Origin: a virus | Taxonomy: Duplodnaviria; Heunggongvirae; Uroviricota; Caudoviricetes | Direction: 5' to 3' (one strand) | IMG/VR virus record: IMGVR_UViG_2675903468_000003 | Coordinates: 1 to 40,979 of that record | Length of the DNA stretch: 40,979 bases | Part shown: positions 21,207-34,812 of the stretch, in pieces | Numbering within the stretch: the stretch's first letter is position 1 | How the letters are laid out: the number at the start of each line of letters is the position of its first letter | Made by a program: the position numbers and the translations under genes | The notes under the pieces: generated by a model | What the model saw: only the letters and a program-made list of their open reading frames with translations | What the model was told of the DNA's origin: nothing | The model's database searches: none

Positions 21207-21476
21207 CACAACCTCGTCTAGTTGTTCGCCATAGATTCAGTGGCAGGCGGTGACGAGTCCGCTTTTCGGGTGCTACCCTAGCCACTGCTTGATTCTATCC
21301 GATGTCTTTCCATCAGTCCGCCACCACAAAGAATCTTTTTTGCCATAAGGCTGGAGGTTCATCTTTCAGTGGCTGCCAGTGTTATTTCCCCACTTACTGG
21401 CTTGGGTTGTTTCGCTGTACTGCCGTAACTGGTGGCGCACAGATTTAGTTAAATCCGTTCTCGCCTGAACTATCTT

Positions 21477-22436: not shown

Positions 22437-22909
22437 ACCTCAATCTCTCTGACCGTTCCGCCAGCCTCTTTGAATTTTGCAATCAGGCTGTCAGCCTTAT
22501 GCTCGAACTGACCATAACCAGCGCCCGGCAGTGAAGCCCAGATATTGCTGCAACGGTCGATTGCCTGACGGATATCACCGCGATCAATCATCGGTAAAGC
22601 GCCACGCTCTTTAATCTGCTGCAATGCCACAGCGTCCTGACTTTTCGGAGAGAAATCTTTCAGGCCAAGTTGCTTACGATAGGCATCCCACCAACGGGAA
22701 AGAAGCTGGTAACGTCCGGCTGCTGTTGATTTGAGTTTTGGGTTTAGCGTGACAAGTTTGCGAGGGTGATCGGAGTAATCAGTGAATAGCTCTCCGCCTA
22801 CAATGACGTCATAACCATGATTTCTGGTTTTCTGACGTCCGTTATCAGTTCCCTCTGACCACGCCAGCATATCGAGGAACGCCTTACGTTGATTATTGAT
22901 TTCCACCAT
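22433..22909 (-). CDS. R: Endolysin (lambda R lytic transglycosylase)
   Basis: [61 protein letters not shown]... is near-identical to lambda R as recalled. Confidence 0.92.
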
Positions 22910-23216
22910 CTTCTACTCCGGCTTTTTTAGCAGCGAAGCGTTTGATAAGCGAACCAATCGAGTCAGTACCGATGTAGCCGATGAACACGCTCGTTATATA
23001 AGCGAGATTGCTACTTAATCCGGCGAAGTCGAGAAGGTCACGAATGAACCAGGCGATAATGGCGCACATCGTTGCGTCGATTACTGTTTTTGTAAACGCA
23101 CCGCCATTATATCTTCCGCGAAGGTACGCCATTGCAAACGCAAGGATTGCCCCGATGCCTTGTTCCTTTGCCGCGAGAATGGCAGCTAACAGGTCATGTT
23201 TTTCTGGCATCTTCAT
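22893..23216 (-). CDS. S: Holin/antiholin (lambda S, dual-start MKM)
   Basis: [66 protein letters not shown]... is near-identical to lambda S107. Confidence 0.92.
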
Positions 23217-23574
23217 GTCTTACCCCCAGAAGGGGATCTGTTCAAATTAGGAATTATGGATATGGTCGCTTGAACAAATCCGGGTTACGGTTGATTTGTA
23301 GCGGGTTTGTTCGTGACCGCATTCATGAGCAAATCAGGCGTGGATTGCGCCAACAATACATGCCGCTCATATCACGAAGCCCAGCCATTGATGCTGGGTT
23401 TTCTTTTTTAAAGCGCACTAGACAACCGTATCCACAGAGTGTCAGCAATGAGTTGGTTAGGTCTAGTTCTTGGTGGAAGTACGCTTTAAAAAATGGGCTG
23501 AGGGTTGTAGCCCAAAATACTGAGGGAATGGTAAGGATGAACAACGGTTTTGCTCTGGGTGGATTTGGCTGTGG

Positions 23575-23656
23575 TGGCCGACGCTGATCTCCGGCTTGTA
23601 TACAGGCACCTTGTTCTTCCGAAGCTCTCCTGCGCGCATCAGCCTGCGCATTCACC
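23575..23656 (-). repeat. About 80-bp conserved element, copy A (late-operon leader); partner copy at 32245-32325
   Basis: Roughly 85% identical to 32245-32325 in inverted genomic orientation, so both copies are in the same sense relative to local transcription. See findings. Confidence 0.5.
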
Positions 23657-23764
23657 ACACCGGAAAGAGCACTCAGTTGTACCGGCCAGTTGTGCCACTA
23701 AGAAATGCTTTCGCAGACCGTTAAGCTCTTTGCCAGTTCTTTAATGCTCTTACCTGTTGTGCAG

Positions 23765-23799
23765 AAACAAAAAAGCCCCGAGCTATTAACTCAGGGCTA
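23765..23799 (-). terminator. tR'-like intrinsic terminator of the PR' leader transcript
   Basis: Minus strand AGCCCTGAGTTAATAGCTCGGGGCT followed by TTTTTTGTTTC, downstream of the PR'-like promoter. Confidence 0.6.
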
Positions 23800-24082: not shown

Positions 24083-24111
24083 AATTTACCCAATTTTATT
24101 CAATAAGTCAA
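24083..24111 (-). promoter_or_regulatory. Late promoter PR' (lambda-type)
   Basis: Minus strand TTGACTTATTGAATAAAATTGGGTAAATT matches the lambda PR' -35/-10 region, immediately downstream of Q. Confidence 0.65.
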
Positions 24112-24153: not shown

Positions 24154-24777
24154 CTAACGTGTGACCGCATTCAAAATGTTGTCTGCGATTGACTCTTCTT
24201 TGTGGCATTGCACCACCAGAGCGTCATACAGCGGCTTAACAGTGCGTGACCAGGTGGGTTGGGTAAGGTTGGGGATTAGCATCGTCACAGCGCGATATGC
24301 TGCGCTTGCTGGCATCCTTGAATAGCCGACGCCTTTGCATCTTCCGCACTCTTTCTCGACAACTCTCCCCCACTGCTCTGTTTTTGCTATATCAACCGCA
24401 CGGCCTGTACCGTGGCAATCTCTGCATCTTGCACCAGGCGTCGCGGCACTACGGCAATAATCCGCATAAGCGAATGTTGCGAGCACTTGCAGTACCTTTG
24501 CCTTAGTATTTCCTTCGAGCTTTGCCACACCACGGTATTTCCCCGATACCTTGTGTGCAAATTGCATCAGATAGTTGATAGCCTTTTGTTTGTCGTTCTG
24601 GCTGAGTTCGTGCTTACCACAGAATGCAGCCATTCCGAATCCGGCTTGTGATTGCGCCATCCCCATAGCAGCCATCACATCAGTACCGGAAAGAGAGTCA
24701 GAAGTCGTAGCCCGTGGTGAGTCGCTCATCATCGGGCTTTTTGGCGAATGAAATTTAGCTACGTTTTCGAGTCTCAT
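24154..24777 (-). CDS. Q: Late antiterminator Q (lambda-type)
   Basis: 207 aa, [73 protein letters not shown]..., near-identical to lambda Q as recalled. Confidence 0.92.
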
Positions 24778-29873: not shown

Positions 29874-30446
29874 TCAGTGCGCGGATTCTTGGCGCTTCAG
29901 GAAGGATTTCGTGGTAAGCATCGACAACATCCTGACAGCTAACGGAAGGTTTTTCTTGTCAGACTTTTTGTCTGCTGTGGCACTCTCTAATACGTCAGTA
30001 TTAGAGATATTATTTATATTATTGTTTATGGACAACCGTTGGACAACCGTTGGACAATCTCCGCTGAGAGCCGCGCCATTACTGGTGTTTGCGTTGGACA
30101 ACCGTTGGACAACCGTTGGACAATTTTTTGCCTGAAAATCGTCATATTTAACGATTGTAAACAGGCTAAATTTCTTCCCCATCGCGCAAATATTAAGCAT
30201 CCCTTTCGACTCAAAAGTCCGTAATAAGCTCCGAACTTTGTTGTCGGGAATGAATGTTTCTCTGACCAGCGACGGGCGTCCAGTTATCATCTGACCGCGA
30301 TCAACAGTTATCGGCCCGATATCCGTATTGACGACAGTAGATTCGTGATTAGCCTTGAGGATTAAGTGAAGCCAAAGATGTACTGCCTGAGAGTCCTTAT
30401 AGAGCCTGCTGTCCATAAACTGGCGGTGTATAGAGACATACCCCAT
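29874..30446 (-). CDS. Replication initiator O-like protein (N-terminal domain, iteron-containing region)
   Basis: AGGAGG RBS then ATG at MGYVSIHRQFM. Winged-helix-like N-domain. Coding sequence includes the tandem iterons, as in lambda O. Frame terminates soon after the AT-rich region. Confidence 0.65.
   Translation of the reverse strand: MGYVSIHRQFMDSRLYKDSQAVHLWLHLILKANHESTVVNTDIGPITVDRGQMITGRPSLVRETFIPDNKVRSLLRTFESKGMLNICAMGKKFSLFTIVKYDDFQAKNCPTVVQRLSNANTSNGAALSGDCPTVVQRLSINNNINNISNTDVLESATADKKSDKKNLPLAVRMLSMLTTKSFLKRQESAH
30035..30125. repeat. Replication origin iterons inside the O-like gene
   Basis: Six or more tandem copies of GTTGGACAACC in two clusters, followed by an AT-rich stretch at about 29960-30030. 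Lambda-like ori architecture. Confidence 0.65.
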
Positions 30447-31357: not shown

Positions 31358-32008
31358 ATGAAAACTCAATTGATGGGAGAGCGCATTCGCGCTCGGAGAA
31401 AAGAACTCAAGATCAGGCAGGCCGCACTTGGAAAGATGGTCGGCGTGTCTAATGTTGCCATATCTCAGTGGGAACGCTCTGAGACAGAGCCAAATGGAGA
31501 GAATCTTCTCGCCCTGGCTAATGCGTTGAAGTGTTCCCCTGACTATCTGATGAAAGGAGAGGAAAGTCTTTCAAACATTGCCTATCACAGTAGGCATGAT
31601 CCAAGAGGGTCATACCCTCTGATTAGCTGGGTGAGCGCAGGATGCTGGATGGAAGCTGTAGAACCATATCATAAGCGTGCAATAGATAACTGGTACGATA
31701 CAACCGTAGACTGTTCAGAAGATTCGTTTTGGTTGGACGTGAAGGGAGACTCAATGACGGCTCCGGCCGGTCTCAGTATCCCTGAAGGAATGATAATACT
31801 CGTCGATCCTGAAGTAGAGCCGCGTAACGGGAAACTGGTAGTTGCAAAGCTCGAAGGAGAAAACGAGGCAACTTTCAAGAAGTTAGTTATTGATGCAGGC
31901 AGGAAGTTTCTAAAACCACTTAACCCACAATATCCGATGATCGAGATCAACGGAAACTGCAAAATCATCGGCGTAGTTGTCGATGCAAAACTAGCAAACC
32001 TTCCATAA
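31358..32008 (+). CDS. c2: CI-type prophage repressor (P22 C2-like; HTH plus S24 autopeptidase domain)
   Basis: 216 aa, MKTQLMGERIRARRKELKIRQAALGKMVGVSNVAISQWERSETEPNGENL... with C-terminal GDSM and Lys motifs; matches P22 C2. Confidence 0.9.
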   Translation: MKTQLMGERIRARRKELKIRQAALGKMVGVSNVAISQWERSETEPNGENLLALANALKCSPDYLMKGEESLSNIAYHSRHDPRGSYPLISWVSAGCWMEAVEPYHKRAIDNWYDTTVDCSEDSFWLDVKGDSMTAPAGLSIPEGMIILVDPEVEPRNGKLVVAKLEGENEATFKKLVIDAGRKFLKPLNPQYPMIEINGNCKIIGVVVDAKLANLP

Positions 32009-32049: not shown

Positions 32050-32128
32050 TCCAAACTTAAGTTACGAAAGAAAATTTAAGTTTTCTTCAAAAATACTCTT
32101 GACCATTAATTAAAGAGATCTTAAATTT
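32050..32128 (+). promoter_or_regulatory. OL operators and PL promoter
   Basis: TTAAG/CTTAA half-site palindromes (for example ttaaagagatcttaaatt) overlapping a candidate TTGACC -35, 17-nt spacer, TAAATT -10, directed toward the N-like gene. Confidence 0.5.
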
Positions 32129-32172: not shown

Positions 32173-32214
32173 GGCTCTTTAACATTGATGGGATTGTCCC
32201 GCCGAAATGCGGGA
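32173..32214 (+). promoter_or_regulatory. nutL (boxA plus boxB hairpin)
   Basis: GGCTCTTTAACA then TCCCGCCGAAATGCGGGA; the same hairpin as at nutR. Confidence 0.5.
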
Positions 32215-32244
32215 ACCAAAGAGTAGTTGGCTTTGGGATTGGAT

Positions 32245-32325
32245 GAATGCGCAGGCTGATGCGCGCAGGAGAGCTTCGGGAGAACAAGGTGCCTGTAAAT
32301 AAGCCGGAGTTCAGCACCGGCCATC
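32245..32325 (+). repeat. About 80-bp conserved element, copy B (PL leader between nutL and N)
   Basis: Partner of 23575-23656; see findings. Confidence 0.5.
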
Positions 32326-32356
32326 CAATCGCCAAAGTCAATCATCGGAGGTCAAC

Positions 32357-32662
32357 ATGACAGTAGTCATTACATATCTGGCTGACGATAACGCCAGAAA
32401 TCGCCGCAGAGCACGCAGACAGGCTCAACGTGAACAGGCAATGCAAGAGCAGCGATTGGCGCGAAAAATTGCGCTAAAGCTCTCTGGTTGCGTCAGAGCA
32501 GATAAAGCAGCATCACTCGGAAGCCTTCGCTGCAAGAAGGCAGAAGAAGTCGAGCGTAAACAGAACCGTATTTACTACAGCAAGCCACGCAGTGAAATGG
32601 GTGTGACTTGCTCAGGCCGCCAGAAGCAACGCGGAAAATCAATTCCAGCTTATTACGATTGA
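32357..32662 (+). CDS. N: N-like transcription antiterminator
   Basis: N-terminal arginine-rich motif DNARNRRRARRQAQRE. C-terminal YYSKPRSEMGVTCSGRQKQRGKSIP resembles lambda N YSKPGERGITCSGRQKIKGKSIP. Confidence 0.7.
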   Translation: MTVVITYLADDNARNRRRARRQAQREQAMQEQRLARKIALKLSGCVRADKAASLGSLRCKKAEEVERKQNRIYYSKPRSEMGVTCSGRQKQRGKSIPAYYD

Positions 32663-33843: not shown

Positions 33844-34812
33844 ATGAGTGAAGTAACAGATTTAGTTGTTATTGAAAAATCAAATGCAATGACTGTATTT
33901 CAGTCTGCCGACCAGATTGAAGAAATCCTTCAAAAGGTTGAACGTGAAGTTATGTCCTTTGTGCCTGATATCACAACGGCAAAGGGCAGAAAGGAGATCG
34001 CTTCTCTGGCGTATAAAGTTGCGCAGACGAAAACATATCTCGATGGTCTTGGCAAAGACCTTGTTGCTGAACTGAAGGAAATTCCAAAGCTAATTGATGC
34101 CAACCGCAAGACAGTGCGTGATCGCCTTGATGAGCTGAAATCCAAGGCACGCCAGCCTCTTACTGATTATGAGGAGGAACAGGCACGGATTAAAGCCGAA
34201 GAAGAAGCTAAGGCAGCAGCTGAAGCTCTCGCAAAGCAAATTGAGTCTGACCATGAAATAGCGATTTTGATGGATCGCGAATTTGACCGCCAAAGAGAAG
34301 AGGCAAGACTCAAAGCGGAGCAGGAAAAGCGAGAGCATGAAGAACGCTTAAAAAGAGAAGCTGAAGAGAAAGCCAGAGCAGAAGCCGAAGCAAAGGCAAA
34401 AGCCGAAATTGAAGCAGCAGCAAGGCGAGAAGCAGAAGCTAAGGCAGCAGCGGAACGTGCAGAGCGTGAACGCATTGAAGCCGAGCAACGAGCACAGCGC
34501 GAAGCAAAAGAGGCAGCAGAACGAGCTGAAAGAGAAAAGCAGGCGGCAATTGAAGCAGAACGCCGAAAAGCACAGGAGGAGGCTGAACGAATCCGGCGCG
34601 AGGCTGAAGCAAAAGAGCAAGCCAGAATAGCAGAAGAAAAAAGAATCAAGGACGAAGAAGAGCGTAGAGCAAAGGATAAAGCTCACCGGAAAGAAGTAAA
34701 TAACAAAATACTTGCTGACCTTATCAAGGTTGGTGCATCAGAAGATGTTGCTAAAAATATCATAACAGCCATCGTAAAAGGCGAAGTATTCGCAACAAAA
34801 ATAACCTACTAA
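33844..34812 (+). CDS. Hypothetical protein with a long E/A/K/R-rich single-helix or coiled-coil region
   Basis: 322 aa: roughly 110-aa N-domain, roughly 170 aa of KAEAEAKAKAEIEAAARREAEAKAAAE-type repeats (TolA-domain-II-like composition), short C-terminal domain. The repetitive DNA produces spurious antisense ORFs. Confidence 0.6.
   Translation: MSEVTDLVVIEKSNAMTVFQSADQIEEILQKVEREVMSFVPDITTAKGRKEIASLAYKVAQTKTYLDGLGKDLVAELKEIPKLIDANRKTVRDRLDELKSKARQPLTDYEEEQARIKAEEEAKAAAEALAKQIESDHEIAILMDREFDRQREEARLKAEQEKREHEERLKREAEEKARAEAEAKAKAEIEAAARREAEAKAAAERAERERIEAEQRAQREAKEAAERAEREKQAAIEAERRKAQEEAERIRREAEAKEQARIAEEKRIKDEEERRAKDKAHRKEVNNKILADLIKVGASEDVAKNIITAIVKGEVFATKITY

Follow-up and report, generated by a model that had tools for sequence, protein, structure and literature searches.

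Why does a phage genome carry the same small element twice, in the leaders of two different operons? The question is raised by a stretch of 40,979 nt of Caudoviricetes DNA, the whole of which was analysed and which we call the window. An element of about 80 nt had been noted there in two inverted copies, and it is real: the top inverted repeat of the window has arms at 23575–23667 and 32231–32323, of 93 nt and 87% complementary (repeat search; a pairwise alignment agrees). The runner-up inverted pairs have just 26–34 nt, at 70–81%. The setting of both copies is that of a lambdoid or P22-like prophage, with the following features. The element is called X, and a second module found next to one of its copies is called Y.

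24154–24777, minus strand: Q antiterminator (PF03589)
24083–24111, minus strand: PR'-like late promoter, TTGACT-17-TAAATT, downstream of Q
23764–23798, minus strand: tR'-like intrinsic terminator, 11-bp stem and T run, upstream of Y and X in the late transcript
23655–23761, minus strand: module Y, CACAACAGGTAAGAGCATT, cargo, AGTGCTCTTTCCGGTGTGG, abutting copy A of X
23567–23661, minus strand: X copy A, late leader
23488–23513, minus strand: second terminator-like hairpin, GGGCU..AGCCC and U6, 9-nt loop, about 55 nt downstream of copy A (read from the sequence)
22893–23216, minus strand: holin S (PF05106)
31358–32008, plus strand: repressor, S24/HTH
32099–32127, plus strand: PL-like promoter, TTGACC-17-TAAATT
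32174–32213, plus strand: putative nutL-like site, from alignment with lambda nutL, with boxA GCTCTTTAA at 32174–32182 and a boxB-like hairpin CCCGCCGAAATGCGGG at 32198–32213
32231–32337, plus strand: X copy B, PL leader
32347–32351, plus strand: Shine-Dalgarno sequence GGAGG of the N-type gene
32357–32662, plus strand: N-type antiterminator gene, arginine-rich, ATG at 32357

On the minus strand, the late leader has about 300 nt between the PR'-like promoter and the intrinsic terminator. A homologue of the N-type gene carries the annotation N in phage Gally, and 10–20 nt separate the end of X from the Shine-Dalgarno sequence of this gene. Since the late genes are on the minus strand and the PL genes on the plus strand, both copies are sense to their transcripts; the gene map bears out what the initial annotation had proposed on this point. 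The antisense ORFs have a peptide in common because the DNA is shared.

Two terminator-like hairpins bracket copy A. According to the annotation of HK620, the downstream one is the late terminator tQ and the upstream one is part of qut. The downstream hairpin (23488–23513, minus strand) has a counterpart at 1641–1667 of another locus, L001. Elsewhere in the window, the sole match at the Rfam gathering score is an int-alpA RNA (RF02996) at 21226–21288 on the minus strand, which scores 44.2 bits where the gathering threshold is 35.8. An iteron-like 11-mer, TGGACAACCGT, is present six times, in two clusters at 30029–30135 within the replication gene region, where it probably marks the replication origin. 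Imperfect GAAGC(A/T)AA(A/G)GC... repeats at 34198–34642 correspond to an Ala/Glu/Lys-rich stretch inside the ORF at 33844–34812.

What are the two copies as RNA? When the sense strand is folded with RNAfold, both form an identical four-way junction, a cloverleaf, which had been missed in the initial annotation. Its arms are, in order, an outer stem (P1), a hairpin (P2), a middle or payload arm, and a second hairpin (P4) which adjoins the 3' strand of P1. P2 has the sequence GCGCA-GGCUGA-UGCGC and P4 is GCCGG-AGAUCAGCA-CCGGC, with a 9-nt loop; the middle arm of the window copies is closed by CAGG/CCUG. The parts of each copy are as follows.

23661–23654, minus strand: copy A, 5' strand of P1, followed by the conserved G at 23653
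23653–23633, minus strand: copy A, 5' module GAATGCGCAGGCTGATGCGCG (P2)
23632–23596, minus strand: copy A, payload arm
23595–23576, minus strand: copy A, 3' module GCCGGAGATCAGCGTCGGCC (P4, with a G-U closing pair)
23575–23567, minus strand: copy A, 3' strand of P1, then CCA
32231–32236, plus strand: copy B, outer extension CTTTGG
32237–32244, plus strand: copy B, 5' strand of P1, GATTGGAT
32245–32265, plus strand: copy B, 5' module (P2)
32266–32302, plus strand: copy B, payload arm
32303–32322, plus strand: copy B, 3' module GCCGGAGTTCAGCACCGGCC (P4)
32323–32330, plus strand: copy B, 3' strand of P1, ATCCAATC
32331–32337, plus strand: copy B, bulged G at 32331, then CCAAAG at 32332–32337

The flanking stems were said to differ between the copies but to stay complementary, and so they do. 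In copy A, UGUGGU(G) pairs with (C)ACCACA, and GG with CC beyond a bulge: 7 bp, the bulge and 2 more pairs. In copy B, GAUUGGAU(G) pairs with (C)AUCCAAUC and CUUUGG with CCAAAG, which adds up to 15 bp with one bulge, besides a possible 5-bp stack. The G-U pair that had been pointed out in the otherwise kept inner GCCGG/CCGGC hairpin is seen in copy A. The thermodynamic z-scores of the copies are unremarkable (-0.4 and -1.8), so that the case for structure rests on comparative data.

These data come from an alignment of 103 distinct members of X in which the arm was replaced by AAAA, so it covers P1, P2 and P4 only. Paired cells reach 92.7% (80.7% in shuffles), and the score for covariation, 0.311, compares with 0.093 in shuffles (none of 500 reaches 0.311) and 0.04–0.11 in slid controls. 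All of these figures come from members that were collected with exact matches to one or the other module, many of them interrelated. P1, a stem of 7–9 bp, closes on an invariant G-C pair and has 105 distinct sequences among 204 unique members, nearly always complementary. Its six inner variable pairs (alignment columns 4–9) each show 5–6 Watson-Crick or wobble pair types and are 89–99% paired; the next pair outward (column 3) is 69% paired. P2 and P4 have double compensatory changes in two pairs each (GAGCA/UGCUC, GCGUA/UACGC, GCUGG/CCAGC, GCAGG/CCUGC). The covariance-aware folding that had been proposed as a check gives the same answer, as RNAalifold independently predicts P1, P2 and P4. On the sense strand, G.U pairs outnumber A.C pairs by 45 to 14, so the folding strand is the one that is sense to the transcripts. 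The fold of X is under selection, and the very strong covariation of the outer stem throughout the family upholds the earlier claim that selection acts on RNA structure and not on the antisense ORFs.

The hairpins behave differently from P1. The stem sequences of P2 and P4 are almost invariant across Alpha-, Beta- and Gammaproteobacterial hosts, a conservation which is somewhat overstated by this choice of seeds and by the removal of the cargo. The near invariance points to a sequence-specific conserved partner, and a generic tRNA-mimic model leaves it unexplained. The loop GCUGA of P2 and the loop UCAGC of P4 are complementary in 99.4% of cells, with variation of the G-U kind only. The loops are nearly invariant and no loop-loop covariation was found in the 103-member alignment; their complementarity suggests an elbow-like (kissing) contact between the two hairpins.

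How widespread is X? With the 106-nt PL copy as a BLAST query, an 80-nt core is found at 93–95% identity in the late leader of HK620; HK633, Escherichia phage swi2 and several siphophages of Klebsiella have it too. The same ends enclose a longer and different middle in Gally, IME10 and Stx2c phages. We then used each conserved end on its own to scan IMG/VR, and the 5' 21-mer to scan GTDB genomes. The 323 loci fetched contain 276 full instances. The consensus of the 5' module is GAAUGCGCAGGCUGAUGCGCG, that of the 3' module is (A/U)GCCGGAGAUCAGC(A/G)CCGGCC, and the element is closed by the complement of the 5' strand of P1. Whole elements range from 65 to 206 nt: the middle is hypervariable in length and sequence, while the modules are fixed.

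In the GTDB scan, the genomes with the exact 5' 21-mer are from Gamma-, Beta- and Alphaproteobacteria, apart from a few others. A query with both modules matches 263 isolated phage genomes, from phages of Klebsiella (67), Pseudomonas (62), Escherichia (56) and also Burkholderia, Erwinia and Aeromonas; P1, P7, PY54, HK620 and Stx phages are among the carriers. Of 5426 complete E. coli genomes, 1313 are matched by this query; 737 of the 1796 E. coli places are on plasmids, including records of the size of P1 (about 90–112 kb). A common intergenic repeat scattered at unrelated sites had been named as the finding that would speak against a special element. We looked for it and this is not the case, all the E. 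coli sites inspected being prophage leaders. Nor does X have the character of the intergenic repeats of E. coli (REP/BIME, ERIC/IRU, BoxC, RSA) or of MITEs, with their fixed terminal repeats: many of its places are on plasmids, and its terminal stems vary and covary.

X matches no family in Rfam 15, whether the whole window is searched at the gathering score or both loci at E-values up to 10. Weak Rfam fragments of rydB and mir-3064 are noise. What X has in common with rydB of K-12 (L325, 2714–2781) is only GCCGGAGAUAAGCGCCGG, an 18-nt P4-like hairpin with one loop change; by our own estimate a genome should contain about 0.2 matches of this kind, and the likeness is probably a coincidence. 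None of the matches listed has an RNA annotation under it, and neither Rfam nor the searchable literature, examined by topic and with the module sequences, describes X. X may be among the unnamed candidates of large catalogues, such as the 2023 catalogue of 10,006 candidate viral RNAs. The view that it is no known repeat and no described element thus holds for E. coli repeats and for Rfam; as to described elements, the N-leader hairpin of lambda is a positional analogue, discussed below.

Where the initial annotation tied the element to the two antiterminated leaders of lambda- and P22-like phages, the family turns out to be much wider. X is also found in virulent T1-like, N4-like and Ackermannviridae phages, in tRNA arrays, and as stand-alone genes with their own -10 box and terminator. 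It frequently lies 5–35 nt ahead of a ribosome-binding site, or directly ahead of a terminator. Of 229 instances, 30 have tRNA genes within 600 nt, and 40 of the 42 tRNAs near X are co-oriented with it, often at spacings of 12–17 nt, as in a tRNA array. X precedes tRNA-Met in phage swi2 and lies inside a 2-kb non-coding tRNA region in an N4-like phage. The family is widespread among phages of Proteobacteria, and its members are tRNA-shaped RNA modules, with a conserved frame and a swappable middle arm, which have no annotation as RNA in the records inspected.

The resemblance to tRNA is one of shape. In both copies and throughout the family, X has the arm order of the tRNA cloverleaf, a match of topology only. 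No unpaired base separates P1 (7–9 bp) from P4 (5 bp), so that a stack of about 12–14 bp is possible; the acceptor/T stack of tRNA has 12 bp. An N-CC tail follows P1 in 61 of 166 sequence groups (37%, against a background of 7.5%), and both window copies end in G-CCA. The full N-CCA tail is present in 24 of 166 (14%, against 2.1%), an enrichment which comes in part from related lambdoid lineages where CCAAAG also pairs with CUUUGG. On the other hand, X does not have the canonical GG of the D loop or UUCRA of the T loop (its loops are GGCUGA and AGAUCAGCA), the loop of P4 has 9 nt and P1 is not fixed at 7. ARAGORN finds no tRNA or tmRNA gene anywhere in the window, and the Rfam tRNA model (RF00005) does not match X at E-values up to 10. 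X behaves as a tRNA-shaped scaffold; it is not a tRNA.

A closer connection with tRNA is provided by the arm. The payload arm of the window has the form CAGGA-N-AGCUUCG-NN-AGAACAAGGUG-CCUG. It is found in 12 distinct X frames and also in five distinct canonical tRNA frames, in Agtrevirus and N4-like phages, at the position of the anticodon arm. X and the tRNA frame are thus interchangeable carriers of one arm. Frames of this kind with a 30-nt arm, from Ackermannviridae and N4-like phages, are located at L003 578–666, L331 377–465, L330 about 381–465, and in L339. Their acceptor, D and T arms are normal, and those of Agtrevirus and L339 have an ACCA end. They are annotated as tRNA-Pro or left unannotated, and ARAGORN calls them 'tRNA-???'.

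Module Y, which abuts copy A, has a long conserved stem of 12–18 bp whose 3' strand overlaps the start of P1 of X. Its general form is CACAACAGGTAAGAGCATT, 35–80 nt of cargo, and AGTGCTCTT(T/A)CCGTTGTGG, and it is associated with tRNA arrays. The fetched loci contain 68 unique copies of Y, 26 of them followed by X within 8–11 nt (it is found in L001, L004, L006, L052, L053, L075 and others). Several Y cargos contain a canonical T arm (GGGTTCGAATCCC), and Y matches no Rfam family. In the inspected record of phage P1, an unannotated Y-X pair lies directly after tRNA-Asn and tRNA-Thr and before tciA (L323, 2001–2137); P1-size plasmids make up many of the E. coli matches of X. Another RNA, Proteo-phage-1 (RF03044, 76.8 bits), shares its strand with X in L057 (3205–3282, minus strand) and L240, where it lies upstream at a distance of 120–190 nt. 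We have rejected it as a general partner of X, as it is a neighbour in only two of about 330 loci.

What would such a scaffold do in a leader? In the reading which we tentatively favour, and which we rate as nearly probable, X mimics a tRNA and serves as both scaffold and processing module, excised by host nucleases from leader transcripts. X would be transcribed within the PL and late operons. In the cloverleaf, P2, with its stem of 5 bp, has the position of the D arm, the payload that of the anticodon arm, and P4 that of the T arm, from which it can stack directly on P1. RNase P and 3' trimming may then act at the acceptor-like P1, and RNase III may cut the extended stem of about 15 bp of the PL copy. 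Excision would sever the nut-bearing leader from the ribosome-binding site of N, as the RNase III hairpin does there in lambda, and it would release a stable small RNA displaying the payload arm. We infer the identity of the nucleases, the accumulation of this RNA and the action of its payload. A bolder version is possible, if rather doubtful: X would be an undescribed class of phage tRNA-mimic scaffolds, nature's version of the engineered 'tRNA scaffold', whose invariant P2/P4 core engages a conserved host machine and whose arms, interchangeable with the anticodon arm of real phage tRNAs, are payloads that act in trans, for example as decoys for defence nucleases directed at tRNA, lambdoid phages having co-opted it as a processing element of the N and late leaders.

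The variability of the arm leads to a related explanation, in which X is a carrier for a trans-acting payload, for example a decoy for a tRNA-targeting defence nuclease or a regulator, the conserved frame does no more than stabilise and present it, and leader processing is incidental. Besides the hypervariable arm of elements of 65–206 nt, some arm types, few in number, are met again with unrelated P1 stems, in different hosts and genome contexts, and the arm of the window is carried by both X and canonical tRNA frames. Stand-alone X genes with a -10 box and terminator, and the presence of X in virulent phages, also speak for it. As for targets, the window contains no cis-antisense site of more than 10 nt, only chance 9–10-mers, and the arm is no more similar to rRNA than chance allows: its matches of 8–11 nt with the 3' domain of 16S and 23S rRNA are equalled by 18–51% of shuffles. 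Moreover, this explanation overlaps with the scaffold-processing reading and does not exclude it. We consider it rather unlikely. A protein-coding ORF has been rejected, as the arm varies in length and has unrelated sequences between the fixed modules.

A simpler proposal comes from the position of copy B, which lies between nutL and the ribosome-binding site of N, exactly where lambda has its RNase III hairpin. The correspondence is clearest in E. coli prophages with a lambda-type nutL and lambda N (locus L008), where X with its P1 stands exactly in place of the lambda sequence GTGTGTG...CACACAC, between flanks, AGCAGAAGGCTTTGGG and CACCAAAGCTAACTGACAGGAG, which are identical in L008 and lambda. 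The lambda sequence is the N-leader hairpin processed by RNase III. Cleavage of this hairpin reportedly relieves the repression of N translation by N and NutL, uncoupling NutL from N translation (Kameyama 1991; Wilson 2002). X might then be a plain RNase III hairpin of this type, with the outer stem as the only functional part and the interior as decoration. The 15 bp and one bulge of the PL copy and the neighbouring Y stem of 12–18 bp speak for it, an RNase III site of this type being expected to offer about two turns of dsRNA, but the P1 of most members, with 7–9 bp, is too short for the enzyme. Besides, the interior hairpins are the most conserved part of X, and the tRNA-array contexts and stand-alone genes would be left unexplained. 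This proposal is improbable.

An invariant core with free stems, tolerant of large insertions, is also what a self-cleaving ribozyme might look like, or a sensor RNA for a ligand or protein built on P2, P4 and the junction. The frequent location 5–35 nt before a ribosome-binding site or just ahead of a terminator, and an exact 21-mer kept across distant Proteobacteria, would fit such an RNA. Known small ribozymes, moreover, cluster near phage tRNAs. But X matches no known ribozyme or riboswitch family, its sequence-invariant stems are atypical of riboswitches, and the exchange of arms with ordinary tRNA frames argues that the frame is equivalent to a tRNA. A new ribozyme or sensor has little probability in our opinion.

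Could the function be at the DNA level? X is scattered in many phage genomes at module junctions, as one would expect of a MITE-like mobile insertion, or of a site at which mosaic segments recombine or are linked, and its modules could serve as crossover points for the exchange of cargo. The terminal stems, however, vary and covary, unlike transposase-bound inverted repeats. G.U pairs are tolerated on one strand only, orientation is constant with respect to tRNA genes and transcription, and neither target-site duplications nor an associated transposase were seen. A DNA element is very improbable.

We can now return to the two leaders. X is found at the PL-leader position in 21-type, mEp460-type and Stx2 phages, and at the Q-holin position in HK620, O26 prophages and a Pseudomonas phage. 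Each position has its own lineage: PL-lineage copies have GGGAG, UAAAUAA and AGUUCAGCA, late-lineage copies have GGAAG, UAUACAA and AGAUCAGCG. The cargo type of the window is rarely present twice in a genome, as 254 E. coli records have 262 places with it. The pair in the window is therefore a mosaic coincidence of two locus-specific lineages, and the pairing of leaders is not a conserved design. A put-like RNA acting in cis on RNA polymerase, close to what that annotation implied, would account for X in both antiterminated operons of the window and in Q-holin leaders of distant phages, but it is hardly credible, since the window already has nutL and N as well as Q and a qut region, the two leader positions assort independently, and X has other settings as well, namely the tRNA units of virulent phages and stand-alone genes that end in a terminator.

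X, which is small, modular and highly conserved, is carried without annotation by hundreds of sequenced phages, among them P1, HK620 and Stx phages, and by roughly one in four complete genomes of E. coli. If it is processed as proposed, lambdoid phages would uncouple nutL from N by interchangeable cassettes, either an RNase III hairpin or X, and phage tRNA arrays would have a second layer of non-canonical members: X, Y and the tRNA frames whose arm has 30 nt. The arms that these three carriers exchange could provide a pool of small RNAs which act against the host or its defences.

Several known systems may be compared with X. Like tRNA mimics such as the tRNA-like domain of tmRNA, the Y RNA YrlA and the engineered 'tRNA scaffolds', it has a cloverleaf, a coaxial stack and an insertion at the anticodon position, and it shares with tRNAs and their mimics the N-CC(A) tail and residence in phage tRNA arrays. 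It differs from them in that its elbow would consist of five Watson-Crick loop-loop pairs, and in that the tRNA and tmRNA models miss it. C4 antisense RNA of P1 and P7 (RF01695) is a small structured RNA in an operon leader, released by RNase P. X is embedded in operon leaders in the same way; unlike C4, it has no Rfam match, and no cis target sites for its arm were found in the window. Hammerhead and HDV-like 'theta' ribozymes flanking phage tRNAs have the same neighbourhood and the same pattern of conserved core and variable stems, but X matches no ribozyme family. Proteo-phage-1 (RF03044) is, like X, an orphan RNA motif of Proteobacterial phages; its sequence and structure are different and it is absent from the window. 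The Pas sRNAs of prophage late regions (PasA, PasC and PasD) are related to STnc100 and bear a 3' intrinsic terminator with a U tract, and have been rejected as relatives since X does not have one of its own and has no STnc100 match.

The nearest parallels concern position. The N-leader hairpin of lambda and X have in common their place and a long-range outer stem of GU-rich and CA-rich strands. Only the flanks align: the interior of the lambda hairpin is unrelated, without the two invariant hairpins and the cloverleaf, and X, unlike the lambda hairpin, occurs far outside N leaders. In phage P22, small-RNA sequencing (2026) has detected abundant stable RNAs whose ends lie at 16 nt from gene 24 and 48 nt from gene 13, upstream in each case (PMC13397905). 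Gene 24 is N and gene 13 is the holin gene, so these RNAs, P22B and P22E, occupy the same two leader positions as X. The end of P22B, ACCAAAGCC, resembles the sequence that flanks copy B on its 3' side (PMC13397905). Their sequences are not X and do not contain its conserved modules; they do show that leader-derived RNAs accumulate at these two sites in a related phage (PMC13397905). In summary, we place X among the structured RNAs that resemble tRNA; lambda provides a known analogue of its position.
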